Positions 5,374 to 31,889 of a stretch of 64,000 nt of DNA are shown here, in pieces. Within the stretch, counting starts at the first letter, position 1; each line of letters opens with the position of its first letter. The DNA is from Negativicutes bacterium (GTDB lineage Bacteria; Bacillota; Negativicutes; UBA1444), in NCBI GenBank assembly GCA_963665275.2, contig CAXXIN010000017.1, forward strand, positions 127,213 to 191,212. Direction: 5' to 3'. The translations under genes and the position numbers were made by a program. A model generated the notes under the pieces. It was given only the letters and a program-made list of their open reading frames with translations, made no database searches and was not told the DNA's origin.

Positions 5374-5377
5374 TTCT

Positions 5378-6565
5378 TCACCCAGCCGCACTGCGCTGGA
5401 GTCGAGCCGCCGGACGGTTTTTCATCAACAAGGCTGCCAACCCGGCCACTAATGGAAGCAGAAAAATAACGAAAATTGCCGATGCCAGGCCCCAAATATC
5501 ACCGATGCGACCAATAAGGATTACAGCCAGACCGCCTACCCCACCGGCAAATCCCATGGTAAGCCCTGCCGCCAACGCTTTGTTATCAGGAATCGCCTCC
5601 TGTGCCGCAATCACAGTAACGGAAAAACTGGATAACAGAGTTGCTCCGGCCAAAGCGAGAAACAGCATACTCAATACCCCTTGCGTGTAAAAAAACGCAA
5701 AAAACAATGGCGTTGAAAGGACTAAGGACCCCACAATCAATCGTTTTCGCCCATAAAAATCAGAGAGAAACCCTCCCAATACTCCCCCCATCGCTCCTGC
5801 AAAAAGCATGATCGTAAGCAGATGACTCGCTGCAACATTGGATAGGTTTTGTGATTTAAAGTACAGGGGCAACAGTGCCAGCATCCCGGTATAAGATAGG
5901 GAACGAATGGCGATAACACTAATGATGGCTACAAGTTCTTTTTTTGAGGCTTTCAACGAGCAAAGAACCTCGGAAAAGTCCGGGACGGTGCCGGATAATA
6001 CATTATCGCGCGGAGCGTAGAAAAACAATAATATCGCTACCAAAATTCCAGGAATCACTGTAATGGCGGTTGCGTGCAGGCCATAAGCTTCGAACAACGG
6101 TACCAGCAAGAGTGGCCCCAGAGCAAACCCGACATTTCCAAAGGCTACAAAGGTTGAAAGCATAACTGCCTTATGTTCGCCGCTCAAAACATTAACCATC
6201 GTGGATGCCTGGGGATGAAACGCCGCCGTACCCAAACCAGCTAAGGCCGCCAAAACAACAATGGCCCAATAATTTTCAACCAGGCCGGTCATGCTCAGCA
6301 TAATCGCCATCCATAGGGTCCCCACATGCACGAGCCAACGTTTACCCTGGCGATCCAAGAAATAGCCAAACATCGGCTGAATCAATGACGAAGTAAGAGT
6401 AAACGCAGAAACCAGAATCGTAGCCCGAGTGGCGGTAAAGCCGGGACTTAACACAATCAAAAAGGGAAATAGCTGAGGTAGATAATTGCTATACAAATCA
6501 TTGAGCGTGTGCGCTACTGAAAGCACTCCGATTTTAGTGTACTGGATCTCTGACTTATCATCCAT
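5378..6565 (-). CDS. MFS transporter (Fsr-like)
   Basis: HTLNDLY, QPMFGYFLDR, GLGTAAFHP, LSDFYGRK; start at MDDKSE with GGAG RBS. Confidence 0.85.
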   Translation of the reverse strand: MDDKSEIQYTKIGVLSVAHTLNDLYSNYLPQLFPFLIVLSPGFTATRATILVSAFTLTSSLIQPMFGYFLDRQGKRWLVHVGTLWMAIMLSMTGLVENYWAIVVLAALAGLGTAAFHPQASTMVNVLSGEHKAVMLSTFVAFGNVGFALGPLLLVPLFEAYGLHATAITVIPGILVAILLFFYAPRDNVLSGTVPDFSEVLCSLKASKKELVAIISVIAIRSLSYTGMLALLPLYFKSQNLSNVAASHLLTIMLFAGAMGGVLGGFLSDFYGRKRLIVGSLVLSTPLFFAFFYTQGVLSMLFLALAGATLLSSFSVTVIAAQEAIPDNKALAAGLTMGFAGGVGGLAVILIGRIGDIWGLASAIFVIFLLPLVAGLAALLMKNRPAARLQRSAAG

Positions 6566-7404: not shown

Positions 7405-9852
7405 TCACTTCTCTTTATTTTGAAATTTCACCTTGAAAAAATCGTTAATGCCAAGGGAAAACAGCAGGCTATAGGCAACGATGAACAGCAGAATCGGCCA
7501 ACTGATCCCCGGCAAGTCGGAAAGGCCAAACGCGCCAATCATACTGGCGATAATGGTGTCGGCAGCAATGACTCCGCCTAGCGTAGCGCTGGGCCTTGAC
7601 TGCCAGAAGTGTCCATCCTGCCGGACTACGAACAGTGAAAATATCGCAAAAAAGAATAGACTCAAGAAAGAAAAAGTGTTTAGCGTGCTCTCGCCAGGGC
7701 GCAACTTGAAATAGTGGATTCCGATGAACATCAACAGGGCAATTTCCAGCACCATGGCCGTCCCCAGAATGGTTCCCATTCTCGTCATCGGAGCGATGTT
7801 GAGGGTGGTGGGGTTGGGCGATGATTGCACCCGGTCTGTCGCCAAAGCTATTTTGGCGAAGTCGGTCATGAAAATCAGCAACAACATGGCTAAGGCCGAA
7901 ACGAGAAAACTGCCGGTAAGTAAGAATGAGCCGACAACAAAAGTCGCCTTGAGGATCGTCCTGGAAATTTTGTTGAGCACCCAGATTTGAATCCGACGGT
8001 GTACGGTTCTGCCGATTTTGATCAGACTGATAATCCCGGCCAGCCCTTCCGTTGTCAGGACGACGCTGGCTGCTTCCTTGGCAACATCGGAAGCATTGCT
8101 GACAGCGATCCCCACTTCCGCCTGCTTTAACGCCGGCGCATCATTTACACCGTCGCCGGTCATTCCCACCACGTGACCCGCATCTTGCAGCGCTTTTACA
8201 ATCAGGAACTTATCCTCGGGATAGACTTCGGCAAATCCACCCGAATCTCGTATGAGCTGAAGAGCCTGCTTCGGTGATGTCTTGAGCAATTCTCGGACGG
8301 CTTTGACAGACACCACCTCGCCGGGAATTCCTACCTGTCGCGCAATTTCCCTCGCAGTGCCCAGCGCATCGCCGGTGAGCATCTTAATGCTGATCCCCAG
8401 TGAATATGCCTGCGAAATTAACTCTTTTGAATCGGGCCGCGGTGCATCATTGAGTCCTAGCAGTCCGATGAAAGAATAAATCGCATTGTCATCGACTGTA
8501 GCAACGGCGATAACTTTATTACCCGCATTGGATAGTTCTGCGGCCATCTGGCGAATTGCTTTAGCGCCTTTATCAGACAAGCCGCAAAGATCAACAACCA
8601 CATCCACTGCTCCTTTCATCACCCGATAGTGTGATTCTGGTTCAGTGACTGTAGCCTCCGTGCGACGGGTTTCCGGGCTGAAGGGAACGAAGTGGTCGAC
8701 TTGGCTTGAACCTACGACAATACCGCGAGCAGTAGCCGCTTTGATGACCGCAATGTCGATCGGATCCTGATCGGCTTCTTGGGAAGCCAACAGGCCAGCT
8801 TTCAGAACGAAGTCTTCACTATAGGGAGGTTGGGGCAACACCTGGGTCACGGAGAGCTTGTTCATTGTGATTGTGCCGGTTTTATCGACGCAAATCACAT
8901 CCACCATGGCGGCATCTTCCGAAGCGCTGAGTCGGGTAACCAGCACTCCTTGACTGACGAGTTCTTTGGCGCCAAAGGTTGTTGCCACCGTGAGCATGAC
9001 CGGTAATGCTACAGGTACTGCCGATAACAAAACGACGAGAACAAGCGGCAACGTCGCTATGACGGAAAGTTGCCGATAAACCACTACCGCCAGCATAATC
9101 GACAAGAGCACTGCCACAATGACAAACAACCGCCGAACAACTTTCGTGATGATCTCTTCGATGTGGAGTTTCGGCCGGGCGGATTGCACAAGTTGCGTGG
9201 TCTTGCCAAAAAAGGTCGCTTTCCCCGTAGTGAGCACCACACCCGTAGCTTCGCCTCGCTGTACGACTGAACTACTGTATAGATTATCCGCTTTCACCTT
9301 AACCACCACGCCAGACTCGCCTGTCAAGCTGGACTGGTCTACCCGCAACTCGCCATCCGCCAACTTTATGTCAGCCGGCACAAAGTCGCCGGCTCGCAGT
9401 CTGATAATATCCCCAGGCACCACCTGCCGGGCCGGGGTAGTGGTCCATTGTCCGTCCCGCAAAACCTTGGCGTTAATCGACAATTTACTCTTTAGCGCGT
9501 CAACCGCCCGCTCAGCTTGTCCTTCTTCAATATAGCTCAACACCGCATTGACAATCAACAATCCGGCGACGATAGCCATATCCGAATATTTTTGCAGATA
9601 CCAGGACAAGATCACGACCAATTCCAGCATCCAGGCAGAAATGCCCCAAAACTTCCCTGCGAAGCGCAGGATGGGATTGGCTTTGGTTTCCGCTACCTCA
9701 TTGTACCCCGATTGCGCAAGACGCTTTGCAACTTCACTGCCGCTCAGGCCTTGGGCGAGCGCCACGTTCAGATCCCCAATCGCTTTATCCAGCGTGGCAT
9801 CAAACAAAGTGGCTTTGACCCCACTGGACTGTGGTTCTGTCTCCATAATCAT
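7405..9852 (-). CDS. Plasma-membrane proton-efflux P-type ATPase (type IIIA)
   Basis: [29 protein letters not shown]; F(W)G-WMLE and TDF motifs typical of PIIIA. Confidence 0.85.
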   Translation of the reverse strand: MIMETEPQSSGVKATLFDATLDKAIGDLNVALAQGLSGSEVAKRLAQSGYNEVAETKANPILRFAGKFWGISAWMLELVVILSWYLQKYSDMAIVAGLLIVNAVLSYIEEGQAERAVDALKSKLSINAKVLRDGQWTTTPARQVVPGDIIRLRAGDFVPADIKLADGELRVDQSSLTGESGVVVKVKADNLYSSSVVQRGEATGVVLTTGKATFFGKTTQLVQSARPKLHIEEIITKVVRRLFVIVAVLLSIMLAVVVYRQLSVIATLPLVLVVLLSAVPVALPVMLTVATTFGAKELVSQGVLVTRLSASEDAAMVDVICVDKTGTITMNKLSVTQVLPQPPYSEDFVLKAGLLASQEADQDPIDIAVIKAATARGIVVGSSQVDHFVPFSPETRRTEATVTEPESHYRVMKGAVDVVVDLCGLSDKGAKAIRQMAAELSNAGNKVIAVATVDDNAIYSFIGLLGLNDAPRPDSKELISQAYSLGISIKMLTGDALGTAREIARQVGIPGEVVSVKAVRELLKTSPKQALQLIRDSGGFAEVYPEDKFLIVKALQDAGHVVGMTGDGVNDAPALKQAEVGIAVSNASDVAKEAASVVLTTEGLAGIISLIKIGRTVHRRIQIWVLNKISRTILKATFVVGSFLLTGSFLVSALAMLLLIFMTDFAKIALATDRVQSSPNPTTLNIAPMTRMGTILGTAMVLEIALLMFIGIHYFKLRPGESTLNTFSFLSLFFFAIFSLFVVRQDGHFWQSRPSATLGGVIAADTIIASMIGAFGLSDLPGISWPILLFIVAYSLLFSLGINDFFKVKFQNKEK

Positions 9853-11223: not shown

Positions 11224-11991
11224 CTAAATATTGCTCAATATCATCCGTAAGCCCAAAAAAAGTAACGCCAGGCAAAGTAGTAGCGTAATCGACCTTGCTT
11301 TCGTTTTTGGCGCAACGTAAGCGCCGATTTGCGCTCCGATAGCAGCGCCACTGCCAACGATAAGCGCCGGGCCAATCAGGATATTGCCCAAAAAATAATG
11401 AGAAACCACGCCAAAAAAAGTGGAAACAGCTAACACAAAGTGTGACGTGGCGGTGGCAACATGAGTAGAAAAACCGAGCAAAGCAATCATGGCGGGTACA
11501 TGGATAATACCGCCGCCGATACCAAAAGTGCTGGATAAAAATCCAACCATTACACTTAAAGATATTCCCAAAAATCGATTGTATTGTGCTGGGAAAACAT
11601 CTGCTCGGCAAACAGTTTCGTCTTCTTCTTTCAAAAGCCAATATAGAAGACCGGCAATCGAAATCAGCAACAGGCCAAAGCTGATGTAAAATATGTGGCT
11701 GGTAAAATAGCGGGCAAGATAACTGCCGATTACAGCTCCTGGCAGTGTTGCGAGACTAAAGCGAATCGCGGCATCATAATATACTTTCTTTTGCCGCATG
11801 TATGCAATCGTTCCGGAAAAAGCATTGAAAAAAACAACTACCAGCGAGGTGCCGACAGCGAACTGGGGAGTATAGTCAAATAGCAGCAAAAAAACTGGCA
11901 CCAAAATAAATCCACCGCCGACTCCTATCAATGTGCCAAAGGAACCCACTCCAAGACCAACAATAAACAATTCTATGGTTAACAGCATCAC
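11224..11991 (-). CDS. Sulfite exporter TauE/SafE family protein
   Basis: Duplicated GVGGGFILVP and GIGGGIIHVP motifs, AVGTSL and ATATSH. Confidence 0.9.
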   Translation of the reverse strand: MMLLTIELFIVGLGVGSFGTLIGVGGGFILVPVFLLLFDYTPQFAVGTSLVVVFFNAFSGTIAYMRQKKVYYDAAIRFSLATLPGAVIGSYLARYFTSHIFYISFGLLLISIAGLLYWLLKEEDETVCRADVFPAQYNRFLGISLSVMVGFLSSTFGIGGGIIHVPAMIALLGFSTHVATATSHFVLAVSTFFGVVSHYFLGNILIGPALIVGSGAAIGAQIGAYVAPKTKARSITLLLCLALLFLGLRMILSNI

Positions 11992-13942: not shown

Positions 13943-14854
13943 GTGATTCAGTTGGAACTTCGTCAGCTACAATATTTCCAGTCAGTCGGTCGACTGCTTA
14001 GCATAACCAAGACGGCAGACAAGTTTAATATTGCTCAACCCTCTGTCAGCATTGCCATACAAAGTCTGGAAAAAGAAATGGGTGTCCAACTTCTAGACCG
14101 TAGTCATCGCCGAATTGCCTTTACTGCGGAAGGTGATATTTTTTTGCAGAAAGTCGATGAAATTCTTGCGCTACTAACAGATGCCGTACGCCAAATGACT
14201 GATTATAGGGCACTTGACCCAGGATACATTAGCCTGGGAATTACGCCGACAACCAGTGGCGTTTTATTCCCCAAAATTTTTGCTGATTTTCACACCCAAT
14301 TCTCGCACATTAACCTTACCAGTGTTGAAGAAGGCTCGCTGGCAATTGTTAAGCTATTGAAGCAAGGTAAAGTGGATATCGGAATCATTATAAATTCAGA
14401 ATTCGCATCTGGATTAGAGATATTACCCTTAAAAACAGAGCAGATCGTACTTTGCCTACCACCCCGCCATCCGCTAGCTGCCAGCAAAAAAGCAACCTTT
14501 GATACTCTCAAAAGCTATCCCTTTCTTTTATTTAAAGAAGATACCTATTTGCGCCAAATAATCTTGCAAGAATGTGCTAAAAACCATATCACTCCCAAGG
14601 TCGCTTTTTCTTCCAGCCAAATTGAAACGATTGTAAGTCTTGTACAGGAAGGAGCCGGCATCACTTTTCTGCTTGAGTCCACGGTCCGTAAATACGCAGA
14701 CATTATGGGGCTTCCGTTAGCGGAACCAATATGGGTCCAGATGGGGTTAGCCTGGAATAAGGATAGATATTTATCGAAAGCGGCCAGAACCTTTATCAAC
14801 TTTGTTACAGAAAAACAATCGCCAGAATCCGAAATTGAATGCGGACCTGAATAG
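13943..14854 (+). CDS. LysR family transcriptional regulator
   Basis: LRQLQYF...IAQPSVSIAIQSLEKEMGVQLLDR HTH plus substrate-binding domain. Confidence 0.92.
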   Translation: MIQLELRQLQYFQSVGRLLSITKTADKFNIAQPSVSIAIQSLEKEMGVQLLDRSHRRIAFTAEGDIFLQKVDEILALLTDAVRQMTDYRALDPGYISLGITPTTSGVLFPKIFADFHTQFSHINLTSVEEGSLAIVKLLKQGKVDIGIIINSEFASGLEILPLKTEQIVLCLPPRHPLAASKKATFDTLKSYPFLLFKEDTYLRQIILQECAKNHITPKVAFSSSQIETIVSLVQEGAGITFLLESTVRKYADIMGLPLAEPIWVQMGLAWNKDRYLSKAARTFINFVTEKQSPESEIECGPE

Positions 14855-14891
14855 AACAAAGACGCCCGTTTTCGGGGCGTCTTTGTTCTAT
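14851..14891. terminator. Bidirectional terminator hairpin
   Basis: ATAGAACAAAGACGCCC-N7-GGGCGTCTTTGTTCTAT between convergent genes. Confidence 0.8.
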
Positions 14892-14894
14892 CCG

Positions 14895-15197
14895 CTATTC
14901 CAACACATTTCTCAAAACCAGCCGCTTAAAAAACAAAACAGTTTTCAGCTCGATTTCCCAAGCTGCCGGCTTCACTTCCTCAAGCGAGTGATGAAGATAC
15001 AGGGTTATCTCGTCGGAAGCGGACACTTCATATTCTTGTCTATCTTTTTCCTCGGGCAATCCCAGTCGCACGGACGGGGTGGCTGTAAGCCGGGAGCCTC
15101 CTCAACCACCGGTCAGACAATAATAAACCCGGGCTGTGACAGAACCGCCCTTCGCCTGGATAAAGTTACGGGCTTGGAGCGTCATTTCCAGTTTCAT
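14895..15197 (-). CDS. Putative 100-aa selenoprotein (CC/Se-motif, HesB-like fold), UGA at 15102-15104
   Basis: Manual translation: MKLEMTLQARNFIQAKGGSVTARVYYCLTGGUGGSRLTATPSVRLGLPEEKDRQEYEVSASDEITLYLHHSLEEVKPAAWEIELKTVLFFKRLVLRNVLE*; GGAGG RBS; ends 3 nt before the terminator hairpin. Confidence 0.75.
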
Positions 15198-15248
15198 CAG
15201 GTTCTTTTCCTCCAATTGTGTCAGCAAACGAGCTTATTTCGCATCGCG

Positions 15249-15665
15249 CTATTTTGTGTTTTTACTCAAAACCTCGTCAAATTGCTGCGTCACTACCGCG
15301 ACTACTTTCGCCACCATTGCCGCGTGCTCTGCCGTCAAATCCCTAGTTGATAAAGCCGGTCCTTCAGCCAGTTCGTCGCCAATGATATCCGAAACAAACA
15401 CCACGCTGTTAACCTTACCGCTGTACTTCTCCGTGGCCCGCTTGGCACAGGCCTTACTGCAGCCATCCACCGCGATAGTCGGATACTCCTGGGCGAACAT
15501 CCGCTCTTCCTGCCCGCCGGCTATATAGAGAGGCAGGCAGATGGTCACGGTCTGATCGGGTCGCACCTCATCCAGCATTTTGCGGGTGGCCAGCCGAGAA
15601 ATCGTGCCACCCAGGCAGTCTTCGCCGCTACAGGAAACCACGCCGATTTTTAATTCTTCCGCCAT
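15249..15665 (-). CDS. DGC domain (putative zinc-binding) protein
   Basis: SCSGEDC, TICLP, AVDGCSKAC. Confidence 0.85.
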   Translation of the reverse strand: MAEELKIGVVSCSGEDCLGGTISRLATRKMLDEVRPDQTVTICLPLYIAGGQEERMFAQEYPTIAVDGCSKACAKRATEKYSGKVNSVVFVSDIIGDELAEGPALSTRDLTAEHAAMVAKVVAVVTQQFDEVLSKNTK

Positions 15666-15669
15666 TTCT

Positions 15670-16080
15670 CTATCGTCCTTCGCTCTGAATTTGCGCCACC
15701 TCAGCGCATAGTTTGGCCGCAATTTCATCCACGATGGCCCAGCCCTCTTCCGTCAGTTCGGTAGCGGTCCCGGGCTTGGCGCCTTTATGCAGGCGCATGA
15801 CATCCAGCACTTTGAACTTGGCCTTGATATCGCCGCCCATTTCTTCCGCGCTTTTTGCGGAGCACATGGCTGGACAGCCGTCAATGGTGATGCAGGGCTG
15901 GTCGACGATCTTCGCCGTAGCCTCGGCATCGCCGGTGACGATATAGGCCAGGCAGGTAGTATCGGCCTGTTCGGGGCAGAGATGCTGCACTGTCTGCAGC
16001 ACCGCTTCCCGGGCCATCAACCCGTACACCTTGCCCATGCCGCTGCAGGCCATGACTTTAACTTTACTTTTTGTTGGCAT
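15670..16080 (-). CDS. DGC domain (putative zinc-binding) protein
   Basis: ACSG, TTCLA, TIDGCPAMC. Confidence 0.85.
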   Translation of the reverse strand: MPTKSKVKVMACSGMGKVYGLMAREAVLQTVQHLCPEQADTTCLAYIVTGDAEATAKIVDQPCITIDGCPAMCSAKSAEEMGGDIKAKFKVLDVMRLHKGAKPGTATELTEEGWAIVDEIAAKLCAEVAQIQSEGR

Positions 16081-16930
16081 GATACTCATCCGCCTTTTTC
16101 TTCAGTACTTTCAGATAGCCCTCCGCATCAAGCAGAAATTCTTGTTCTTCCGCGAAATTCGTCAATTCGATTTCAGCAATCCAGCCTTGTTCATACGGAT
16201 TCTGATTGATCAGTTCCGGCGCGTTCAGCACGGGGGTATTCACCGCCGTGATTTTGCCGCTGACCGGACTCACCAGTTCAAAGACCGCTTTGCCGGATTC
16301 GAGCGTTCCGGCTTCGTCGAATTGATCGATGGTCGCGCCTACCGACGGCGGTGTGACGAACATGATGTCCGACAAGCTTTGCTGCATGAAATCCGTAATG
16401 CCGATCCGGGCCCGGTTGCCGACCGGTTGCACCCAGCAATCGTTCTCCGTGAAATAAAAGCCTGTCGGCGGAACACGGAAAATGAACTTATCTTTCTTGT
16501 GGATGATATATTCCTCGGGTACGGGATAGAGCACGCCGGAATCGACGCTGGCATCCTCCGCTTCCGCCTTGACCAGTTCGGCGGCAAGCTCCGCGCCAAG
16601 GGCGAGTTCGGCCGCACCCAGCCGCAATGGCGTAACTGCCAGCGGCGCTCCGCGCTTTTGCGCTTCTTCCGTCACCGTCATTTTGCGGAAAATCTTCAAC
16701 CCTTTTTCGCCCGCCAATTTGCTGGCGCAGCGCGTCGCACAGCCGTCAATCACCAATAACGGATTCTCTTTGGCGATTTTATCGTACCGGGCATCCGACA
16801 CCCGGTAAAACACCGGGCAAATCAGTTCATTCTCCGTGTTCTCGCAGACGATCTGCGCGATCTCCCGGGCTACCTGACCCGCACATTTATCCAGTCCGTT
16901 GCAAGGCAATACCGCAAATTTTTCACTCAC
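16064..16930 (-). CDS. DGC domain - glycine cleavage H (lipoyl carrier) fusion protein
   Basis: N-terminal PCNG, ICP, IDGCATRC; C-terminal ARIGITDF, LESGKAV (lipoyl Lys), SPVSG, NPYEQGW. Confidence 0.85.
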   Translation of the reverse strand: MSEKFAVLPCNGLDKCAGQVAREIAQIVCENTENELICPVFYRVSDARYDKIAKENPLLVIDGCATRCASKLAGEKGLKIFRKMTVTEEAQKRGAPLAVTPLRLGAAELALGAELAAELVKAEAEDASVDSGVLYPVPEEYIIHKKDKFIFRVPPTGFYFTENDCWVQPVGNRARIGITDFMQQSLSDIMFVTPPSVGATIDQFDEAGTLESGKAVFELVSPVSGKITAVNTPVLNAPELINQNPYEQGWIAEIELTNFAEEQEFLLDAEGYLKVLKKKADEYHANKK

Positions 16931-17216
16931 CGCTCGCCACCCCGCTCCGTGTTTCCTTTATCTTCTTCGTCACTTCGACTTTATTGGGAAACTCCAGTGC
17001 GTCCAGTCCGCAGGTCTTACTGCAGGCCCGGCAGAACACAACGCAGTTGAGGGGATTTTCGACAATCAGCTTGATGGGGTCATCTTCCTGCTTCTTAAAT
17101 ACTTTGTGGGGACAAAAATCGAAGCACTCCATGCAGTAATTGCACTTTGTATAGTCAATGGTCGGTTTCCAGTCGATGGTATTGCGGGGTACCCCCATGA
17201 AAGTATCTTCGCTCAC
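16923..17216 (-). CDS. 4Fe-4S ferredoxin
   Basis: CNYCMECFDFCP and CVVFCRACSKTC. Confidence 0.88.
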   Translation of the reverse strand: MSEDTFMGVPRNTIDWKPTIDYTKCNYCMECFDFCPHKVFKKQEDDPIKLIVENPLNCVVFCRACSKTCGLDALEFPNKVEVTKKIKETRSGVASGE

Positions 17217-17596
17217 TGCTTAGCCTCCATTTCTTCCAATGCTTTGGAAACTTTTTCAAATGCCTGCTCATTGGTCATATCGCGGATATCCAGCGCCACC
17301 AAGTCTTTGGTGACATCCAGCCCGGCCGCCTTGAAGGCATCCTTGAACATTTTGATCTGCATGTTTTTGGCGCAGGCCCCGATGACCATCGGCCGGTCGG
17401 CTTTGAGCATATCCGCCAGGAAGCGGTCGCCGTCCTCTTCACACAGTTGCGGGTGTATGAACCCGTATTCCACCGGCAATTCCACCCGGACCTGATTGAT
17501 GAAATCCCAGATATCCATGGCTTTAAAGCCGGGGCACTTGCCTGTGCACACGCACATAATAAAACCGGGTAGTTTTTTTTCTTCTTCGCCCATCAT
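17213..17596 (-). CDS. Small Cys-rich protein resembling the HdrA N-terminal Fe-S domain
   Basis: FIMCVCTGKC, HPQLC, VIGAC, DIRD spacing resembles HdrA CxC...LC...AC...NIRE. Confidence 0.55.
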   Translation of the reverse strand: MMGEEEKKLPGFIMCVCTGKCPGFKAMDIWDFINQVRVELPVEYGFIHPQLCEEDGDRFLADMLKADRPMVIGACAKNMQIKMFKDAFKAAGLDVTKDLVALDIRDMTNEQAFEKVSKALEEMEAKQ

Positions 17597-17627
17597 TGCA
17601 TCTCCTCTTACGTAATTTTATATTTTC

Positions 17628-19031
17628 TTACCCTTTATGGATTGACCTGCCGAGCGCGTCGGCACAAGCCTCCATCACTGCTTCGCTCAGCGTGGGGTGC
17701 GGGTGGACCAGGTCGGCGAGTATGTCGGCCTTGAGCCCCAGCGAGACTGCCAGCGTCAATTCCGAAATCAGTTCCGTCGCCTGCGGACCCAGGATCTGCG
17801 CGCCCAAAATCACATGGGATTCCTTATCCGTCACGACCTTTACCATTCCTTCCCGCTCGCCCATGCACTGAGCCCGGCCATTGGCACGAAAATCAAAGCG
17901 CCCGGTCTTCACTTCGCGGCCCTGCGCGGTCGCCGTTTTTTCATCCATACCGACCGAAGCCAGTTCCGGCTGAAGGTACACACAGGAAGGAATCGCGTTA
18001 TAATTCAGGAAAAGGTTCGCGCCCAAGGCATTTTCTATTGCCACCCGGCCTTCCACATAGGCTTTGTGCGCGAGCAGCTTGCCGCCCGTCACATCACCGG
18101 CCGCGTAAATGCCCGGAACTGTCGTTTCCATTTGCTCGTTCACAATCAGCGCTCCCTGCGCGCCGGTAGCTGCGCCCAGTGCAATTAATTCGCGGGGCAC
18201 CGCCGGTTTGCGGCCCACTGCCAGTAGCACACGATCGGCCTCGATCAGGGTTTCCTTCCCCTGGGTCTGAAACAGGACTTTTGCTCCCGCTCCCTCAGCA
18301 ACGATTGCGGAAACGGTGCTGGCAATATAAACCTTCACGCCCTGACGTTTCAAAACTTTGAGCACTTCACCGGCAATCTCAGCATCTTCCTGCGGCAAGA
18401 TCTGATCCGCCATTTCGATGACGGACACCTTCGTTCCCAGTCCGTTGAACATTTGGGCAAACTCCAGCCCAATAGCGCCGCCGCCAATAATAGTCAAACG
18501 CTGGGGCACTTCCTCCAGCGACAACATCTCATCACTGGTCAGCACTACCGGCAAATCCAGACCGGGAATATTGGGCCGCACTGGCCCGGAACCTGTAGCG
18601 ACCAGGATTTTTTTACAATGAATGACCACTTGGCCTTCCGTTGTTTCAACATGCATCTGTTGGGTATTAATAATAAGGCCCTGGCCTTTTATGATAGTAA
18701 TGGCATCCTTGTGCAGCAAATGTTCCACACCCAGGCGCAGACTTTTGACGACCCGGCCTTTGCGGCTATGCCCTGCCGGCCAGTCGATCACAGGTGGCGG
18801 CCCCACCACGCCGAACTCCTGTCCCTTGCGGGCAAGCGCCGCCAGCTCCACCGTCCGCAGCAATGCCTTGGTAGGAATACAGCCACGATTCAGGCACACC
18901 CCGCCCAACAAGTCCTGTTCGACGATCGCTGTGCGAGCGCCTAACTGAGCAGCCCGCACGGCAGCCACATATCCGGCAGGTCCGCCGCCAAGAATGGCAA
19001 CTTCGACATCAACCTCTCGTTGCATATTCAA
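17628..19031 (-). CDS. lpdA: Dihydrolipoyl dehydrogenase
   Basis: GGGPAG, GGVCLNRGCIP, GGGAIG, HPHPTLSE. Confidence 0.93.
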   Translation of the reverse strand: MNMQREVDVEVAILGGGPAGYVAAVRAAQLGARTAIVEQDLLGGVCLNRGCIPTKALLRTVELAALARKGQEFGVVGPPPVIDWPAGHSRKGRVVKSLRLGVEHLLHKDAITIIKGQGLIINTQQMHVETTEGQVVIHCKKILVATGSGPVRPNIPGLDLPVVLTSDEMLSLEEVPQRLTIIGGGAIGLEFAQMFNGLGTKVSVIEMADQILPQEDAEIAGEVLKVLKRQGVKVYIASTVSAIVAEGAGAKVLFQTQGKETLIEADRVLLAVGRKPAVPRELIALGAATGAQGALIVNEQMETTVPGIYAAGDVTGGKLLAHKAYVEGRVAIENALGANLFLNYNAIPSCVYLQPELASVGMDEKTATAQGREVKTGRFDFRANGRAQCMGEREGMVKVVTDKESHVILGAQILGPQATELISELTLAVSLGLKADILADLVHPHPTLSEAVMEACADALGRSIHKG

Positions 19032-19068
19032 TCCACCTCTATTTTTTACACTTGACGATTATGTTGAT

Positions 19069-19088
19069 ATATAATTTTATATTTATAT
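19069..19088. promoter_or_regulatory. ATATAA-N8-TTATAT palindrome, possible ArsR/SmtB-type operator upstream of lpdA
   Basis: Inverted repeat about 40 bp upstream of the lpdA start; AT-rich, so could be chance. Confidence 0.35.
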
Positions 19089-19378
19089 GTTAACACAATG
19101 ATAGTACAAAAATTTTTGCCTGTCAATTTTCTTTTCTTATTCTCGACTCCCCAAATTGAAGAGAAAATAATCCCTGCTGCAATCCGGAGCTGCAAAGCAT
19201 AAGGAGTTGTCTGCTGTATTCCTTCTCCGTAAGCGTACCGCAATATAAAAACACCTTGCGGCAAAAGTTGTGCAAGGTGTTTTGGCTATGTGCAGCTATC
19301 GTCCGGCATTGGAGCCCTCCGGACCCAGCACACATATTCTCAAGACCGCAGGCCATGAGCATCGCATTTTAAAAACTT

Positions 19379-20566
19379 TCACTCATTCTTCCGAGCACTG
19401 TTTTGGAAAATATAAAAGCACCCCAGCGCGATGGTTTGAGCGACGACAATAAAGCCGAATACAAAAGTCAGGTTAAAGTCGTACAAATACCCCACCGCCG
19501 TACTGCCGAGGAACCATGCAACACCATAAATCGTGTTAAAGATCCCGTAAGCCCTTCCCCTGGCCGAGATAGCCGTCATGTCTGCAATCGCAGCCCGCAT
19601 GATCGTCTCGTGAATCCCCATAACCGCACCCCACAAAACTACCGCCGTTATCGCCAGCGCATAGCTCTCGGAGAATCCGAAAAAAGGAATGGGAAGGCTG
19701 AGGAAAGGAATTGCGAGTAAAACTCTCATGCCTTTCTTATCGTACAATTTTCCCACAAACAGCGCCACCCCTGCGTCCACTCCCATAGAGAGGGCATACA
19801 GTGTCGGAATAAGAGCTTCAGGCAAGACGTCTTTCACCTGCAAATGATACGAGATCAGTTGAAAGCTGGCAAAGCCCAACACGCAGAAAAATGAAAAAAC
19901 AGAGTATCGCCAAAAACTTCGCGATAACGGTTGCGGCCCCAATGCAGAGTCTTCTTTGTGCAGGGTAACGCGCTCTTCCAGCTGGGCTGGATCAGGATAC
20001 TTCAAACTGGTAAAGATCACGACCGCCACCGTCAAGAGAGCAGGCACCCACATCATTTGAAATCCAAGTGCATAGCCGCCATGCAAGGCTAAGCCTGCGG
20101 TAAACAACAATGGGCCGATAAATGCGCCGATTTGGTCCATCGCTTCGTGCAAGCCGAACCCGAACCCGGTCCCCACTTGCTTCGTCGCATGGGACAACAA
20201 GGCATCCTTGGCCGGGCTGCGGATCGCCTTGCCGATTCGTTCCAGCATAATAAACACGACGGCTATCTTCCAATCGCCCGCTATCGCCAACAGCGGCACG
20301 GAAACCAGCAGACCATATCCCAGAATAGTTACCGGCCAGTAAAGCTTCGTCCGATCGACAAAATATCCCGACACCAGCCGCAGCGCATAGCCCAAAAACT
20401 CGCCGATACCGGTCACCAAACCCACCGTAGCTGCACTCGCACCCAAAAAACCGAGATAAGGCCCGTAGATACTGCGAGCGCCCTCGTAGGTAATGTCTCC
20501 GAATGCACTGACCAAGCCAAAAAGCAAGATAAACTGCATGGCTTGCTTCTTTTTGTCCGTTTTCAT
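19379..20566 (-). CDS. MFS transporter
   Basis: DITYEGARS, ERIGKAIRSPAKD, GKLYDKKG. Confidence 0.88.
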   Translation of the reverse strand: MKTDKKKQAMQFILLFGLVSAFGDITYEGARSIYGPYLGFLGASAATVGLVTGIGEFLGYALRLVSGYFVDRTKLYWPVTILGYGLLVSVPLLAIAGDWKIAVVFIMLERIGKAIRSPAKDALLSHATKQVGTGFGFGLHEAMDQIGAFIGPLLFTAGLALHGGYALGFQMMWVPALLTVAVVIFTSLKYPDPAQLEERVTLHKEDSALGPQPLSRSFWRYSVFSFFCVLGFASFQLISYHLQVKDVLPEALIPTLYALSMGVDAGVALFVGKLYDKKGMRVLLAIPFLSLPIPFFGFSESYALAITAVVLWGAVMGIHETIMRAAIADMTAISARGRAYGIFNTIYGVAWFLGSTAVGYLYDFNLTFVFGFIVVAQTIALGCFYIFQNSARKNE

Positions 20567-20598
20567 TATGCGGCCCCTACTTTCATGAATGGTTGCAA

Positions 20599-20850
20599 CT
20601 ATTTCTTCGCGATTGCCTTCTCCAGCCAGTCATGAACTTCCGAAGCAGCCGGGATGCGGCCGGAGGAAACCACTTCTTCATTGATGACCAGAGCTGGCGT
20701 GGTCAATACATTGTAGTTCATAATGTCGGCATAATCCATCACCTTGATGACTTGAGCTTCCAGGCCCATTTCCTCGGATACTTTGCGCGCAATGCCCTCA
20801 AGCCGCTTGCAGTTGGCGCAGCCTGAACCCAGAATTTTAATGGTGACCAT
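20599..20850 (-). CDS. Small redox-active disulfide protein (MTH895/thioredoxin-like)
   Basis: IKILGSGCANCKRL, YNVLTTPALVIN, GRIP. Confidence 0.88.
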   Translation of the reverse strand: MVTIKILGSGCANCKRLEGIARKVSEEMGLEAQVIKVMDYADIMNYNVLTTPALVINEEVVSSGRIPAASEVHDWLEKAIAKK

Positions 20851-20890
20851 TCTTCTCCCCTCCCCTCGTATTGATGGAAAAGTTTGGCGC

Positions 20891-22336
20891 CTATGCCACG
20901 TTTCGCTTGCTAGCTCTCCACAGTCCGATAAAAAGGGTCGCAAGAAAAACAACCAGATAAAGCATAATCACAGTAAGGCTGGCGCCATCGATCCACATGC
21001 CGTAGAGCAGTCCAGAAAGAGCGCTGAAAATTGCGACGCATACCACATAGGTCGCGGTTTTGGCACGACCGATAATGGCCGCGGTAATGAGCATGCTTTG
21101 CAGACTCAGCTCGGGATCCGCCATGAGGTAGGCAAGCAGCGGCCCCCTATGCATACCCAGATCGAGGAACATCTTGGCGATGGGGACTTCCACCAGGGTC
21201 GGAAAATACATGAATATCCCGAACAATACGCCAGCCAGGTTCCCAGTCAGAGAGTTGTCGCCAGCAATGGCTTCAATCCATTCCGGTCTGATTATCTGCC
21301 TGATGACCCCCACGACAAAAACGCCGACAATCAACAGCGGGAAAATCTGTTTGACGAATTTCCAAGACTCCCAGAGAAAGCTGCAAGTCTCATCTTCCGT
21401 AAACTTTGTTACGAGCAACCCGTAAATTGCAGCCAACGACAAGGCCACGCCTATGAACTTGCCATTGACAAGAATGTCGAGGCCGCCGGCATGCGGCGTC
21501 ATGCCCACCGCCGCACACAGAAAGGTTATCGCCACTAGCGTTAAAGAAATCACCGACCAGCGGTTCAACCCGTCAAAAACATTTTCTAGACCTTTCCAGG
21601 CCGTCCAACCGATAAGCGCCAACAGGACAATCAGGATAGCACCTTGCGCAGAAACTCCCTCTTCCCCTTTTGCCGGATCAAAGGGTACCAGTCGGAGCAA
21701 GGATTCCTGCACTGTATCCATGCCGGCAACCGGCAACGTGATCGTTGCATACGTGTTGGTGAGCAGACCGATTTTCAGCGTACCTGAAAGGAGCAATGCA
21801 ACCAGCAGGGCGATCAGGGCGAAAGCCGAGCGCTTCATTTCCTGATTGCCGGCAAACAGCGCATCTGCGGCTGCATCATGGGCCGTATCTTCTTTGCTGA
21901 AAACCAGCGCCATGATCATCCCGATACCGATCCCGAATACCAGGGAAAGAAAAAATCTGGCAAAAGCCAGATCAGCGCCGATCAATCCGCCGGTGTAAAT
22001 TAACGCGAGAATATTGGCGGCTGGCGCAAAGAACAAAAATGTGATCGCAGGGCCGATGCCCGCGCCTTTCTTATATATTCCGGCAAACAGGGGGACAATC
22101 GTACAGGAACACACGGCAAGCAATGAGCCTGATGCAGCTGCGGCAGGATAGGAAATATATTTCGGCCGGTTCCGCCCCAGAAACCGGGTTACCGATTCTT
22201 TGGGGATGAGCGCGGTCATTGCGCCGGCAATAAAGAATGCCGGCAACAAGCACAATAGTACGTGCGCCGCAAGATAGGCCGCCAAATTTCCCAAACCGCT
22301 GTTGAGGAGGCTTACGAAGTTATATGTTGTTTCCAT
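20891..22336 (-). CDS. DUF318/ArsP-type permease
   Basis: HVLLCLLPAFFIAGA, AVCSCTIVPLF, MYFPTLVEVP. Confidence 0.85.
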   Translation of the reverse strand: METTYNFVSLLNSGLGNLAAYLAAHVLLCLLPAFFIAGAMTALIPKESVTRFLGRNRPKYISYPAAAASGSLLAVCSCTIVPLFAGIYKKGAGIGPAITFLFFAPAANILALIYTGGLIGADLAFARFFLSLVFGIGIGMIMALVFSKEDTAHDAAADALFAGNQEMKRSAFALIALLVALLLSGTLKIGLLTNTYATITLPVAGMDTVQESLLRLVPFDPAKGEEGVSAQGAILIVLLALIGWTAWKGLENVFDGLNRWSVISLTLVAITFLCAAVGMTPHAGGLDILVNGKFIGVALSLAAIYGLLVTKFTEDETCSFLWESWKFVKQIFPLLIVGVFVVGVIRQIIRPEWIEAIAGDNSLTGNLAGVLFGIFMYFPTLVEVPIAKMFLDLGMHRGPLLAYLMADPELSLQSMLITAAIIGRAKTATYVVCVAIFSALSGLLYGMWIDGASLTVIMLYLVVFLATLFIGLWRASKRNVA

Positions 22337-22688
22337 GCTGCACCCCCTGAAGCCCTGCGCAGATCAAACAACTCCCTGAAGTGTGGTGAAGAAAAACCAA
22401 CGCCTATTATAATTTTATATCAAACTCTTTTTCCCGCCATTATCAACCCCTAATCACAAAATCCAATAATTTTACCGAAAAACTAGCTGCTTTGTATAAG
22501 ACGGAGAATCAAACGCAAGTGAGACGTTGAAGCGATCCTCCCTTTTTGCAAGCAGTTTCCCGTTTTAACCATACAAAAAGATGTTCATGCCACACCAGCC
22601 CGAAGGACGGTTTCAGGCAAAAAGAAGGAACTGCCTCATTTGTTAGTGCGACAGCCCCTTATGACATCCATATAATGCTTAGATAATG

Positions 22689-23711
22689 TTATTTCGCAGA
22701 CTTGGCTATAGCTTCCAACTCAGCCTTGTATTCAACGCCATATTTTTCAACGACACTCTTGACCGCTGCTTTCCACGGCGCAACGTCTTTTACTTCCGTT
22801 ACGATTACTCCGCCCTGGATCAGTTTTGCCAAGGCATCTTTCTCAAATTTATCCCAGGCCTCTTTCTGGAACTTCACGGAATCCTGGGCTGCCTGCTGGA
22901 TGATCTTCCGATCTTCATTCGACAGTTTGTCCCAGGTTACTTTGCTCACCATCAGCACTTCAGGCACACGTTGATGACCATCGAGGATATAGTTTTTTAC
23001 TGCCTGATGATGGCTCGCTGTCAGATAGCTCGGGGGGTTATTTTCCGCTCCGTCGATAACGCCTGTCTGAAGAGCGCTGAACACTTCGCCGTAAGGCATG
23101 GGGGTTGCGCTGGCGTCAAAGGCTTTCATCAGTTCAATATTGATGGCGTTTTGAATAACACGGATTTTAAGACCTTTTAGGTCCTCCGGACTTTTAACCG
23201 GTTTCTTGGTGTAGAAGCTACGGGAACCGGAAGCATAATAAGCCAGTCCCATCATCCTTGATTTTTCCAGGTTGGTCAACATACCTTTGCCATAATCGCT
23301 GTCAAGGAATCGCCAAACATGATCATTGTCATTGAAGACATATGGCAGGGAAAAAACGCCGAACTGTTTGTTAAATTCAGCCAAAGTTCCGGAGCTGATC
23401 CGCGTGAACTCGATGGACCCTAGTTGAACCTGCTGAATGACCGAATTTTCGTCGCCGAGCGAACCTGAATCAAACACTTTGACCTGAATCCGGCCCTGCG
23501 TTCTTTCATTCAAAAGTTCGGCGAATTTCTTGTCGCCCAGGGTAGTGGGATAATCCGCCGGATGAGCTTCAGCCAGCCGAAAATTTAATTTGGGTTTTTG
23601 TGGTGCATTCCCAGCCGCCGGAGTCGCCTCTTTTTTGCCGCAACCAGTGATAAGAACTGTCAGTGCCAGAATTGCCGTGAAACAAACGACCAGCCACTTT
23701 TGATTTTTCAT
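22689..23711 (-). CDS. dctP: TRAP transporter substrate-binding lipoprotein
   Basis: Lipobox ITGC, DLKGLKIRV, EVFSALQTGVIDGAENN. Confidence 0.9.
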   Translation of the reverse strand: MKNQKWLVVCFTAILALTVLITGCGKKEATPAAGNAPQKPKLNFRLAEAHPADYPTTLGDKKFAELLNERTQGRIQVKVFDSGSLGDENSVIQQVQLGSIEFTRISSGTLAEFNKQFGVFSLPYVFNDNDHVWRFLDSDYGKGMLTNLEKSRMMGLAYYASGSRSFYTKKPVKSPEDLKGLKIRVIQNAINIELMKAFDASATPMPYGEVFSALQTGVIDGAENNPPSYLTASHHQAVKNYILDGHQRVPEVLMVSKVTWDKLSNEDRKIIQQAAQDSVKFQKEAWDKFEKDALAKLIQGGVIVTEVKDVAPWKAAVKSVVEKYGVEYKAELEAIAKSAK

Positions 23712-27823: not shown

Positions 27824-28531
27824 ATGGACCTTCAGATGTTGAAGCGGTCACCGCACGAATCGACACGCAACTACGTTTATCAGATAATGAAACAAAACAT
27901 CATGACGCTTCAATTACCGCCGGGAACTGCCCTGTCCGAGCAGGAAATCGCCACAGCGCTTTCCGTGAGCCGAACTCCGGTTCGGGAAGCTTTTATCCGT
28001 TTATCCCAGGAAAATCTTCTGGACATTATCGCGCAGCGTGGGACCTATGTATCGTTGATTGACCTGGATAGTGTCCGGGAGTGCAAGTTTTTACGTGAAA
28101 CCCTGGAAAAAGCCGTCATACGTCTGGCATGCGCAAATTTTCCCAATGACAAATTATTTGATCTCCAGTCCTATCTCAGTGTTCAGGAGCTGTGCCTGCA
28201 GGAAAACAACTATCTGAAGTTTTATGAACTGGATGAAAAATTGCACCGTACGATCTTTGACGGCTGCCAAAAAGCCCGCATCTGGGAACTCATCCAACAA
28301 CTGGGCAGTCACTACAACCGCGTACGCTTGCTCAATCTGGCCCGGGGGCATGAGCTGGGCCAATTGCTTGAGCATCACAAAAACATTGTTCTTGCCATTC
28401 AAACCCGCGATGCCGCTTTGGGTAGCCGTACCATCAATCAACATTTAAACAAGGTACGCGTTGACATCGTGGATTTGCTGCAGGATTATGGCTCCTATTT
28501 CAAACAATCCGATTCTGATGGGGTTAATTAA
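27824..28531 (+). CDS. GntR family regulator (divergent from the uxu operon)
   Basis: LSEQEIA...[13 protein letters not shown] plus FCD domain. Confidence 0.9.
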
Positions 28532-29588
28532 TTTTTAGCGTACAATTAAACTTCGCAAAAGAATTGCGAAAATGCAGCGCCACATTCACCAGCGCGATCA
28601 TCACCGGCACCTCGATCAACGGCCCGATGACTGCGGCAAAAGCCTGCCCCGAATTGATGCCAAAGATTGCAACTGCTACCGCAATCGCCAATTCAAAATT
28701 GTTGCTTGCCGCAGTAAATGACAGGGTCGTCGTCTGTTCATAGTTCACACCCATGCGCCAACTCATGAAAAAAGAAACCGCAAACATGATCGTAAAGTAG
28801 ATGATCAACGGAATCGCAATCCGCACCACGTCCATCGGCAGTTTCACAATATAGCTGCCTTTCAATGAAAACATTACCATGATCGTAAACAGCAGCGAAA
28901 TCAACGCCAGAGGACTGATCTTGGGAATGAACGTATTTTCGTACCATTCGCGCCCTTTGGCCGGCAACAGGAATCTGCGGGTAAGAAATCCAGCCAAAAA
29001 AGGAATCCCCAGATAGATCGCCACACTCGTGGCCACATCCTTCATTGAGACTTGGATACTCATCCCCTTGAAGCCGATCCAGCCTGGCAATACGGTAATG
29101 AAAAAATAGGCGAAAACCGAGTACAACAACAATTGAAAGATCGAATTCAAAGCCACCAAAGCCGCTGCATATTCATTGTCGCCGTCCGCAAGTGAATTCC
29201 ATATGATGACCATCGCGATACAACGAGCCAGTCCGATGAGGATCAAGCCCACCATGTATTCCGGCATGTCAGCGAGAAAAATGATCGCCAGTGTGAACAT
29301 CAGCACTGGGCCGATAATCCAGTTCTGCACTAGAGACAGCGTCATGACCTTGCGGTTGCTGAATACTTTTCCCAGTTCTTCATACTTCACTTTGGCCAGT
29401 GGCGGATACATCATCACGATCAGGCCAATGGCGATCGGAAGCGAAGTAGTACCTACCGAAAACTTGTCCAGCCACGCCGGTATGCCAGGAAATAAGTACC
29501 CCCCACCGACTCCAATGGCCATGGCCACAAAAATCCACAGGGTCAGAAACCGGTCAAGAAATGACAGTCCTTTTTTCGTTTGCGCCAT
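28524..29588 (-). CDS. acr3: Acr3 family arsenite efflux transporter
   Basis: [41 protein letters not shown]. Confidence 0.95.
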
Positions 29589-29700
29589 AAAAATCACTCC
29601 CCTTCCATGCTGAATAGTAGGATTACAGTCGCCGCCCAATTCACGCTACCCTTTCGATCACGCGGCATAATAAGGATCCACTTCAGTATTCTTATATTCA

Positions 29701-31684: not shown

Positions 31685-31889
31685 CTTTCATCCATCCTTT
31701 ATAACTGCACTTTGCAGGTTGGAACCTGCCTGTGTTATTTCACTATTGATAAAAGCTCCTATTATTAAAACATATAACTAACTATTAATAGATTAATCCT
31801 CTTTTGAAATTTATGCAACTCTCGCTTGACGAATTGCATAAAAATATTTTAATATATTATTGAAGATATGTGAAAGGAATGTGATTGTC

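Follow-up and report, generated by a model that had tools for sequence, protein, structure and literature searches.

We analysed a stretch of 64,000 nucleotides, hereafter the window, from a Negativicutes bacterium of the order UBA1444 (assembly GCA_963665275.2, contig CAXXIN010000017.1, positions 127,213 to 191,212 of the forward strand), and in particular an operon encoding a lipoyl-carrier protein fused to a DGC domain. According to the list of open reading frames (ORFs) of the window, the minus strand carries seven same-direction, closely packed ORFs between positions 14895 and 19031. The genes and signals of this locus, in the direction of transcription, are the following:

19058..19126, minus strand: promoter-like site (TTGACA, 17 nucleotides, TATCAT; 11 of 12 positions matched) and imperfect 17-nucleotide inverted repeat, upstream of lpdA
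17628..19031, minus strand: dihydrolipoyl dehydrogenase (Lpd, LpdA), 467 amino acids, the fourth Lpd paralogue of the genome; TIGR01350, 506.2 bits (cut-off 408.8)
17213..17596, minus strand: p127, a stand-alone protein of 127 amino acids resembling the N-terminal domain of HdrA; five invariant cysteines (C15, C17, C21, C52, C75)
16923..17216, minus strand: ferredoxin, 97 amino acids; Fer4, E 2.9e-7; motifs CxxCxxCxxxCP and CxxxCxxCxxxC
16064..16930, minus strand: DGC::GcvH fusion, 288 amino acids; PF08859, 64.1 bits (residues 6-95), and PF01597, 113.3 bits (residues 159-278)
15670..16089, minus strand: DGC2, free DGC protein, 139 amino acids; PF08859, 47.2 bits
15249..15665 (ORF to 15728), minus strand: DGC3, free DGC protein, ~138 amino acids; PF08859, 64.8 bits
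14895..15197, minus strand: CC/Se-motif (seleno)protein, 100 amino acids; TGA at codon 32 (15102-15104) within GGUGG; NF041239, 50.6 bits (cut-off 40)
14841..14895, minus strand: hairpin between the convergent genes of the selenocysteine (Sec) protein and a LysR-type regulator; -34.7 kcal/mol, z -8.06

An operon of seven tightly packed, co-oriented genes closed by a terminator had been proposed in the initial annotation; the minus strand does hold these seven genes, all but p127 with a family match in Pfam/NCBIfam, and a strong hairpin comes after the last of them. The ORFs are joined by overlaps of 4, 8 and 26 nucleotides and gaps of 4, 31 and 51 nucleotides, the overlap of the ferredoxin start with the p127 stop being that of 4 nucleotides. 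The folding energy of the terminal hairpin is reached by none of 200 shuffled sequences and it is likely a two-way terminator, although its T run (U-tract) is weak and it does not appear in the output of a terminator scan. At the other end, the imperfect inverted repeat (19058-19099; ATTGTGTTAACATATAA / TTATATATCAACATAAT) lies between the -10 element and the start of lpdA, a position at which it could serve as an operator. A perfect 12-bp hairpin at 19248-19283 closes the major facilitator superfamily (MFS) gene located upstream of lpdA, and its presence, together with the promoter-like site and the inverted repeat, suggests that the operon is transcribed on its own; the seven genes thus look like one separate transcription unit. 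The repeat is unlike the one at 31810-31842, which precedes a DGC-arsR gene pair further along the window. The closest regulator gene is that of the convergent LysR-type protein (13943-14854, plus strand), for which the model 'selenium metabolism-associated LysR' is the fifth-best NCBIfam match, at 143 bits and well below its cut-off of 250.

The central part of this operon is conserved. In a search covering one genome for each of 185,579 species, 187 of the 476 pattern-matched stretches encode a relative of the fusion, and 1177 database relatives of this protein are found at E <=0.001, both domains being present in all of the best 120. In the 80 loci that were examined, the best of the 187, tblastn detects p127, the ferredoxin and the fusion in every case, DGC3 in 78 and DGC2 in 77, the misses including loci that end at contig edges (L003, L042). 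The order p127-ferredoxin-fusion-DGC2-DGC3 is retained in nearly all of them, the DGC genes being placed in front in a few metagenome-assembled genomes (MAGs; L032, L059, L060, L065). We conclude from this gene content that the five-gene core is a real and strongly conserved module, hereafter the cassette. The conservation expected for the whole gene set consequently holds for the core, including p127, the ferredoxin and the fusion, but not for the selenoprotein, which occurs in a single locus of the 80 (L002). The carriers comprise Bacillota (Negativicutes, Desulfosporosinus, Desulfitobacterium, Clostridium ljungdahlii, C. ragsdalei and Neomoorella), Bacteroidales, Gastranaerophilaceae (Melainabacteria), Limisphaerales and an acidobacterial MAG. 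Within the order of the present bacterium, the cassette is found in 3 of 13 genomes, this one counted, and three genomes of 99-100% completeness are devoid of it; as judged by this distribution, it is an accessory element with a patchy occurrence in the order. No description of the cassette was found by searches of 8.1 million open-access full texts and 0.36 million preprints, a provisional result given that subscription journals lie outside this coverage. In the open-access full texts PF08859 is not mentioned, 'DGC domain' designating there only the diguanylate cyclase, and none of the five core genes was found designated as an ars gene in the literature searched.

Among the core proteins p127 is the best conserved, with 65-100% identity over the 80 loci and across phyla, and it has zero matches in Pfam or NCBIfam. 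Its sequence profile nevertheless aligns to residues 5-94 of HdrA (7bkb_A) with an E-value of 3.4e-4. The AlphaFold2 (AF2) model of p127, which has a predicted local distance difference test (pLDDT) score of 87.7, retrieves HdrA chain A as the top seven Foldseek matches (E 2.7e-5 to 1.8e-4, template modelling (TM) score normalised on the query 0.63-0.66), with MvhD chains ranking lower. The label 'HdrA-N-like' given to this small cysteine protein in the initial annotation is borne out by both approaches, and the predicted model gives p127 the fold seen in the N-terminal iron-sulfur domain of HdrA; p127 is presumed to be an iron-sulfur protein. Compared with HdrA of the methanogen heterodisulfide reductase (PDB 7bkb, 5odc, 8rvu), p127 shares the fold of the N-terminal cluster domain and the cysteines placed after strands 1, 2 and 3, but with its mere 127 amino acids it lacks the FAD/thioredoxin-reductase domain and the ferredoxin domains, and it has an additional CxCxxxC arrangement. 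The family counts 131 representatives at E <=0.001 among 1.84 billion proteins, of which 128 do not exceed 208 amino acids, and a search for longer relatives yielded one protein of 245 amino acids, with 26% of the query covered. By these sequence searches the p127 family is small, tight and almost always free-standing. The ferredoxin encoded next to it has eight cysteines in two motifs, all of which are invariant in the 23 aligned sequences.

In the fusion, a linker connects the four-cysteine DGC domain (C10, C38, C64, C68) to a lipoyl-carrier H domain. The lipoyl lysine K214, which lies in an ESGKA motif and had been noted as intact in the initial annotation, is indeed invariant in 16 of 16 aligned sequences. 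Against NCBIfam, the H domain scores 118.1 bits for NF002270 (cut-off 117) and 105.3 bits for TIGR00527, under the cut-off of 115.85. In the AF2 model of the fusion (pLDDT 85.1), the H domain superposes on the pea H-protein (1dxm) with Z 22.5 and a root-mean-square deviation of 1.0 over 131 aligned residues. The DGC domain is less telling, its best structural match being 3pu6_A, an uncharacterised Wolinella protein (Z 8.7), with flavodoxin-like and hydrogenase-protease folds ranking next (Z 6-8); the predicted model shows only a generic three-layer alpha/beta fold, pointing to no function, and the DGC sequence profile compared with solved structures gives nothing at E <0.3. All DGC paralogues have four invariant cysteines, which follow strands 1 and 2 or belong to the DGC-x3-C motif. 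In DGC2, C15, C46, C66, C72 and C76 are invariant in 20 of 20 sequences; in DGC3, for which the alignment of homologues favours a start at 15665, this applies to C10, C41, C67 and C71 (21 of 21), a fifth cysteine being nearly so. All three DGC domains of the cassette and a fourth copy of the genome exceed the PF08859 gathering score of 27, and the four DGC matches of the genome are all located inside the window. A protein atlas lookup with DGC3 returned DGC clusters only. The placement of cysteines after strands 1-3 gives the impression of a feature common to DGC and p127, but the comparison of their profiles is not significant, with a probability of 0.12%. When the DGC domain of the fusion, DGC2 and DGC3 were submitted together to complex prediction, the score of the complex was too close to that of a control to argue either way about binding. 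Two variations of DGC3 can be mentioned: the homologue in L008 has a C-terminal GCGCGCGCGC tail, and in the rearranged cassettes of L032, L059 and L060 the protein reaches ~240 amino acids owing to a C-terminal extension of ~140 amino acids with no Pfam/NCBIfam match.

The Lpd that heads the operon exceeds the cut-off of its own family model, the scores obtained with the mercuric reductase (MerA) and glutathione reductase models in the NCBIfam scan being under theirs. Its identity is 47-76% to 43 Lpds that adjoin the cassette in other Bacillota, as against only 40-43% to the three other above-cut-off Lpds of its own genome, which are encoded on other contigs, each at ~2.6 kb or less from an E2 gene. 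In a quick maximum-likelihood tree with thin outgroup sampling, 44 cassette Lpds form a single group (SH-aLRT branch support 99) that leaves the three housekeeping paralogues outside, as well as the cassette-adjacent Lpds of L059 and L065, which have long branches. The sequence relationships indicate that the cassette Lpd is a separate, dedicated lineage. As a component of the proposed relay, LpdA thus fares well in that its lineage travels with the cassette, and less well in that an adjacent full-length Lpd is encoded in only 45 of the 80 loci, 35 being without one; any LpdA match by tblastn is found in 49. The hypothetical relay drawn in the initial annotation, which would pass from NADH through LpdA and the lipoyl arm to the DGC cysteines, is moreover incomplete, in that it assigned no part to the two iron-sulfur proteins, both of which are present in all 80 loci.

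The last gene of the operon has a different status. Read with the TGA as Sec, its product matches NF041239 over residues 1-95, a span that includes the motif; in L002 the TGA occupies the same codon, the sequence that spans it being 65% identical, and SelB is encoded in the genome. Homologues are retrieved only as C-terminal fragments of 58-65 amino acids, as would be produced by gene callers that treat the TGA as a stop. The in-frame TGA and the above-cut-off match are consistent with the designation as a Sec protein; no selenocysteine insertion sequence (SECIS) hairpin was found, shuffled sequences folding as well as the 63 nucleotides that surround and follow the TGA (z +0.98). Sec decoding is plausible on the sequence evidence, and from its distribution among the loci the selenoprotein is a lineage-specific addition outside the conserved system. 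A second selenoprotein gene of the window, 11.6 kb from the operon, encodes a PrxU-type peroxiredoxin (2705-3310, minus strand) with a TGA at the peroxidatic position (FTFVUPTE), which reaches 387.9 bits for NF040737 when read as Sec (cut-off 270).

The genome possesses the conventional lipoyl systems elsewhere. Within the window there is no match to GcvP, E2, LplA or the CCG domain of HdrB-type proteins, in agreement with the initial annotation, and the genome's matches are all on other contigs. A canonical GcvH gene is adjacent to that of GcvP on contig C4, the only contig with matches to the glycine decarboxylase P protein, where GcvT-like ORFs are also found; three of the four E2 matches have an Lpd nearby, and none of the 15 CCG matches lies on the contig of the window. 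The six LplA-type matches elsewhere suggest that the genome can lipoylate proteins. As queries against the 80 cassette loci, the own-genome GcvP/GcvT and E1/E2-region ORFs, which were named by position and not by a family scan, and a CCG-domain HdrB-like protein gave no hit in any locus, while the own-genome H-protein, Lpd and LplA queries did match. The condition under which the operon would be a piece of a known system, namely GcvP/T or sHdr genes in homologous operons, was thus encountered in none of them. A fragment of glycine cleavage, of a 2-oxoacid dehydrogenase or of sHdr was accordingly rejected as the identity of the operon, the partner genes being elsewhere, absent from the 80 loci, and the Lpd being of a separate lineage. 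As a separate observation, contig C15 of the same genome contains at ~40.3-47.7 kb (L088) two GcvH-like genes, two LplA-type genes, an HdrB-like protein with two CCG domains and an E2 gene, possibly a second non-canonical lipoyl-protein locus of the sHdr/LbpA-like type.

The surroundings of the operon are of an arsenic type. The relevant genes of the window, which confirm the ArsP-type permease, redox disulfide protein, Acr3 and fourth DGC gene beside arsR that had been reported initially, are the following:

20599-20952 (ORF; likely start 20850), minus strand: MTH895/ArsE-family thioredoxin-like protein; TIGR00412, 97.1 bits (cut-off 62)
20891-22336, minus strand: ArsP_1-type permease; PF03773, 237.6 bits; ~1.9 kb upstream of the operon
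28524-29639, minus strand: ACR3; TIGR00832, 465.7 bits against 282.8; 9.5 kb from the operon
30713-31684, minus strand: cation diffusion facilitator (CDF) transporter; PF01545
31860-32264, plus strand: fourth DGC gene; PF08859, 92.8 bits; beside arsR
32278-32619, plus strand: ArsR/SmtB regulator; PF01022; the closest arsR, 13 kb from the operon

Upstream of the operon and on its strand, the MFS gene accompanies the ArsP_1 and ArsE-type genes; in the relative L002, the pair formed by the ArsP_1 permease and the thioredoxin directly abuts lpdA. ArsF-type and DsbD_2 (ArsG-type) proteins have no match among the window ORFs scanned with Pfam/NCBIfam, which are a part of the total. The window as a whole is well supplied with ion and metal transporters, encoded at 76-1260, 4381-5391, 7405-9852, 11224-11991, 30713-31684 and 45726-48404, consisting of two CDF proteins, a TehA/SLAC1-type tellurite-resistance/dicarboxylate transporter, two P-type ATPases and a TauE/SafE sulfite-exporter-family protein. 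It also has a CBASS-like anti-phage pair on the minus strand (51513-53991), with a SMODS/DncV-like nucleotidyltransferase bearing an AGS-C sensor (51513-52979) and a patatin-like phospholipase (52999-53991).

A broader picture is obtained from the neighbours of the cassette in the 80 loci, for which 1170 ORFs within ~6 kb of the fusion were clustered and 38 cluster representatives were named by Pfam and, for some, NCBIfam:

ArsR/SmtB regulators: 57/80 loci
DsbD-family membrane proteins: 24/80
Lipoate-protein ligase: 20/80 (TIGR00545, 436.4 bits against 280)
ACR3: 15/80
ArsP_1: 13/80 full-length, 14/80 split
ArsF family: 13/80 (representative 109.2 bits against 60)
ArsA: 8/80
ArsD: 4/80
MFS: 11/80
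Cysteine desulfurase: 11/80 (TIGR01977, 444.8 bits against 377)
CDF: 8/80
Extra DGC: 7/80
Rhodanese: 7/80
Se/S-carrier: 4/80
AhpD-like (CMD): two clusters, 4/80 and 3/80

In addition, the MTH895/ArsE-type thioredoxin is detected by tblastn in 32 loci, and a representative of the ArsG family scores 315.7 bits in NCBIfam (cut-off 200). The lipoate ligase gene is on the strand of the cassette in 18 of 20 cases, with a median start 1.7 kb past that of the fusion, which is directly after DGC3. In 12 of the 80 loci, from Bacteroidota and Melainabacteria, the genes form a one-strand string ArsR-ArsE-ArsF-ArsG-p127-ferredoxin-fusion-DGC-DGC, with ArsE, ArsF and ArsG designated after their NCBIfam family names. 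Bacillota differ in that the lipoate ligase gene is often followed by those of a CcdA-like membrane protein and a membrane-anchored thioredoxin. Two conserved same-strand ORFs of ~152 and ~312 amino acids, with no family match, lie 3' of DGC3 in several Bacteroidota (L064, L070, L071, L076, L077); they are found in 6 and 5 of the 80 loci, respectively.

We propose that the operon represents, in a local form headed by Lpd, a conserved accessory module found in arsenic-type resistance islands, acting as a lipoyl/thiol/iron-sulfur redox relay linked to arsenical stress, a proposal to which we give an even chance of being correct. The position of the cassette among the arsenic-resistance genes of many anaerobes suggests that lipoic acid has a part in the defence against arsenic. 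In the mechanism that we envisage, the H domain would be lipoylated by a ligase of the cell, which would be the operon-encoded one in the 20 relatives that have it, and the dedicated Lpd would then reduce the lipoyl arm with NAD(P)H. In the loci where Lpd is absent, low-potential electrons might instead arrive via the ferredoxin and p127. From the dihydrolipoyl arm, either reducing power or a thiophilic ligand bound to it would pass to the four-cysteine centres of the three DGC domains, and the output would be the detoxification of arsenicals. It can be hypothesised that this takes the form of a reduction of pentavalent arsenicals, or that the thiol proteins of the island (ArsE/ArsF-type proteins, partners of ArsP) are kept reduced; a further option would be the stripping of As(III) from dithiols before its export by ACR3 or ArsP.

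The first of these outputs can be taken one step further, with the cassette as an arsenical reductase running on protein-bound dihydrolipoate and converting pentavalent into trivalent forms for ArsEFG, ArsP, ArsM and ACR3. The reduction would be carried out by the four-cysteine centres of DGC together with the lipoyl arm, itself reduced by Lpd or by the ferredoxin and p127. Arsenate might be the substrate, or else a methyl or aromatic arsenical such as roxarsone(V). We regard this specific version as decidedly unlikely, and mention it because of its consequences: we know of no enzyme assigned to the reductase step for organoarsenicals, and if true, it would fill this step and turn lipoate, a classic victim of arsenic, into a weapon against it.

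Several observations weigh against a link to arsenic. The arsenic-type surroundings are real at the level of the relatives, with ArsR, ACR3, ArsA and ArsD among the neighbours at the frequencies listed above and arsEFG-type genes upstream in the 12 loci, but the operon under study is without an arsR of its own: there is no ArsR ORF at 19032-22700, and it has its own promoter-like site and an inverted repeat with no regulator assigned. Likewise, 23 of the 80 loci are devoid of ArsR in the span searched. The neighbour counts are lower bounds, as a simple greedy ORF caller was employed, and the 80 loci do not constitute a random sample of the 187. The cysteine desulfurase, rhodanese, Se/S-carrier and CDF neighbours, together with a MerB fusion in one locus, point elsewhere. 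Regulators of the ArsR/SmtB family also sense other metals and persulfides, and the motif CVC followed by D/E, which we take to be the mark of an arsenite-sensing ArsR, is present in only 26 of the 81 neighbouring ArsR ORFs, another CxC motif being found in 36 and no CxC in 19.

A rival explanation is a general soft-metal or disulfide-stress module, in which the DGC domains would bind zinc or cadmium as a buffer or chaperone, their thiols being kept reduced by the lipoyl, Lpd and iron-sulfur components, and arsenic would be only one inducer among several. This explanation is consistent with the label 'putative zinc-binding protein' attached to DGC proteins by database sources, with the metal-sensing family of the regulators, some of which have no CxC motif at all (19 of 81), and with the CDF genes, which occur near the cassette in 8 of the 80 loci and, in the window, next to the fourth DGC gene. 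A MerB-thioredoxin fusion in L059, and the CcdA-type membrane thiol transfer proteins and thioredoxins 3' of the cassette in Bacillota, can be read in the same way. However, the arsenical genes (ACR3, ArsA, ArsD, ArsF/ArsG family, ArsM-like methyltransferases) outnumber the zinc, cadmium and mercury neighbours, and a plain metal buffer needs neither a lipoyl carrier nor a dedicated Lpd and two iron-sulfur proteins. We would call this explanation possible but on balance unlikely.

The handling of sulfane sulfur or selenium is a quite improbable function, in our estimation. The DGC cysteines would carry persulfide or perselenide in the manner of DsrEFH/TusBCD, and the lipoyl arm would reduce or accept it, as in sHdr-LbpA. 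The cassette contains three paralogous small alpha/beta cysteine proteins, which we presume to be comparable to the three paralogues of DsrEFH; cysteine desulfurase (11/80), rhodanese (7/80) and Se/S-carrier (4/80) occur nearby, a selenoprotein is part of the present operon, and some members of the ArsR family sense persulfide, the BigR model matching weakly. Against this, the sulfur- and selenium-related neighbours are a minority, the Sec protein is confined to one of the 80 loci, an HdrB-type (CCG) protein is lacking from the window and from all 80 loci, and no DsrE or TusA family is present among the 38 scanned neighbour-cluster representatives.

Dihydrolipoyl groups are a classic target of As(III), and an additional lipoyl protein could for this reason be conceived as a decoy, a sacrificial sink with high affinity for As(III) that would shield the essential lipoyl enzymes and be regenerated by the DGC and iron-sulfur proteins. 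There is something to protect in this genome, with its four E2 and three other Lpd genes, and the H protein of the cassette is additional to the canonical GcvH. A sink would nonetheless require stoichiometric amounts of protein, it does not account for two iron-sulfur proteins and three distinct DGC paralogues being so strictly conserved, and it overlaps with the relay that we propose; we grant it a slim chance. Finally, a displaced fragment of glycine cleavage, 2-oxoacid dehydrogenase or sHdr-LbpA with partners elsewhere, although suggested by the Lpd and H-type carrier common to those systems and by the separate cluster with two GcvH-like, two LplA-like and one HdrB-like gene on another contig, can be practically dismissed in view of the canonical GcvH/GcvP on contig C4, the three E2 genes with their own Lpd nearby, the own-genome GcvP/GcvT, E1/E2-region and HdrB-like queries that hit none of the 80 loci and the separate lineage of the cassette Lpd.

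If the lipoyl relay that we propose is correct, its implications extend beyond this bacterium. Very few functions of lipoic acid are known: apart from 2-oxoacid dehydrogenases and glycine cleavage, it serves in sHdr sulfur oxidation and in some peroxidase relays. A module that has a lipoyl carrier and an Lpd lineage to itself, frequently with a dedicated ligase as well, and that resides in the arsenic-type islands of no fewer than 187 species genomes belonging to several phyla, would extend this list to metalloid defence, and would supply the first functions for the DGC domain and for the family of free HdrA-N-like proteins. The arsEFG-type link would be a concrete tie to the handling of organoarsenicals by anaerobes. 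Since all parts of the cassette are small soluble proteins, genetics and biochemistry are feasible.

It is instructive to compare the cassette with the systems to which its parts are related. With glycine cleavage it has in common the fold of the H-protein with its lipoyl lysine and the L-protein (Lpd), but the P and T proteins are absent both from the window and from the 80 loci, and the genome has a separate canonical set; unlike the situation in the 2-oxoacid dehydrogenase complexes, the operon Lpd has no E1 or E2 core alongside. Lipoyl-dependent thiol relays are exemplified by Lpd-DlaT-AhpD-AhpC of Mycobacterium tuberculosis and by Lpd/H-protein/OsmC or Ohr peroxidase. They share with the cassette the combination of Lpd and a lipoyl carrier and, with the mechanism proposed for it, the path from NADH through Lpd and a protein-bound lipoyl group to a cysteine protein, for the purpose of detoxification and not of central metabolism; in the present operon, Lpd and carrier are encoded together. 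The difference resides in the acceptors, which would be DGC domains in the present case, and in the two obligatory iron-sulfur proteins; none of the seven operon genes encodes an AhpD/CMD, OsmC/Ohr or peroxiredoxin acceptor. By analogy, it is these relays that the cassette would most resemble in its working, minus their acceptor families.

A comparable association of a lipoyl carrier with Hdr-related parts is found in the sHdr-LbpA system of sulfur oxidation, in which, according to passages of Cao et al (2018, eLife, PMC6067878), a GcvH-like lipoyl carrier operates outside glycine cleavage and is encoded with Hdr-related iron-sulfur parts, often with its own lipoate ligase. Such a dedicated ligase is lacking from the window, while it directly follows the cassette in 20 of the 80 relatives. 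The cassette differs in having, of HdrA, only the N-terminal domain of ~125 amino acids in a free form and no full flavoprotein; it is accompanied by neither HdrB/C (CCG) nor DsrE/TusA, its carrier is fused to DGC, and its context is one of ArsR and ars genes and not of sulfur oxidation. This context brings it close to the ars islands and to arsEFG (Chen, Zhang and Rosen, 2019, as cited in a passage of PMC9144182): around the cassette lie genes for regulators of the ArsR family, for an ArsE-type thioredoxin, for permeases (ArsP or ArsG) and for ACR3, and in 12 loci it continues an arsR-arsE-arsF-arsG string. The window itself departs from that arrangement by having an ArsE-like protein and ArsP_1, with ArsF and ArsG unmatched in the ORFs scanned and no arsR at the operon. 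In topographic terms the cassette belongs to the ars islands, and we regard it as a novel form of the lipoyl-relay type, tied to arsenic-type islands.

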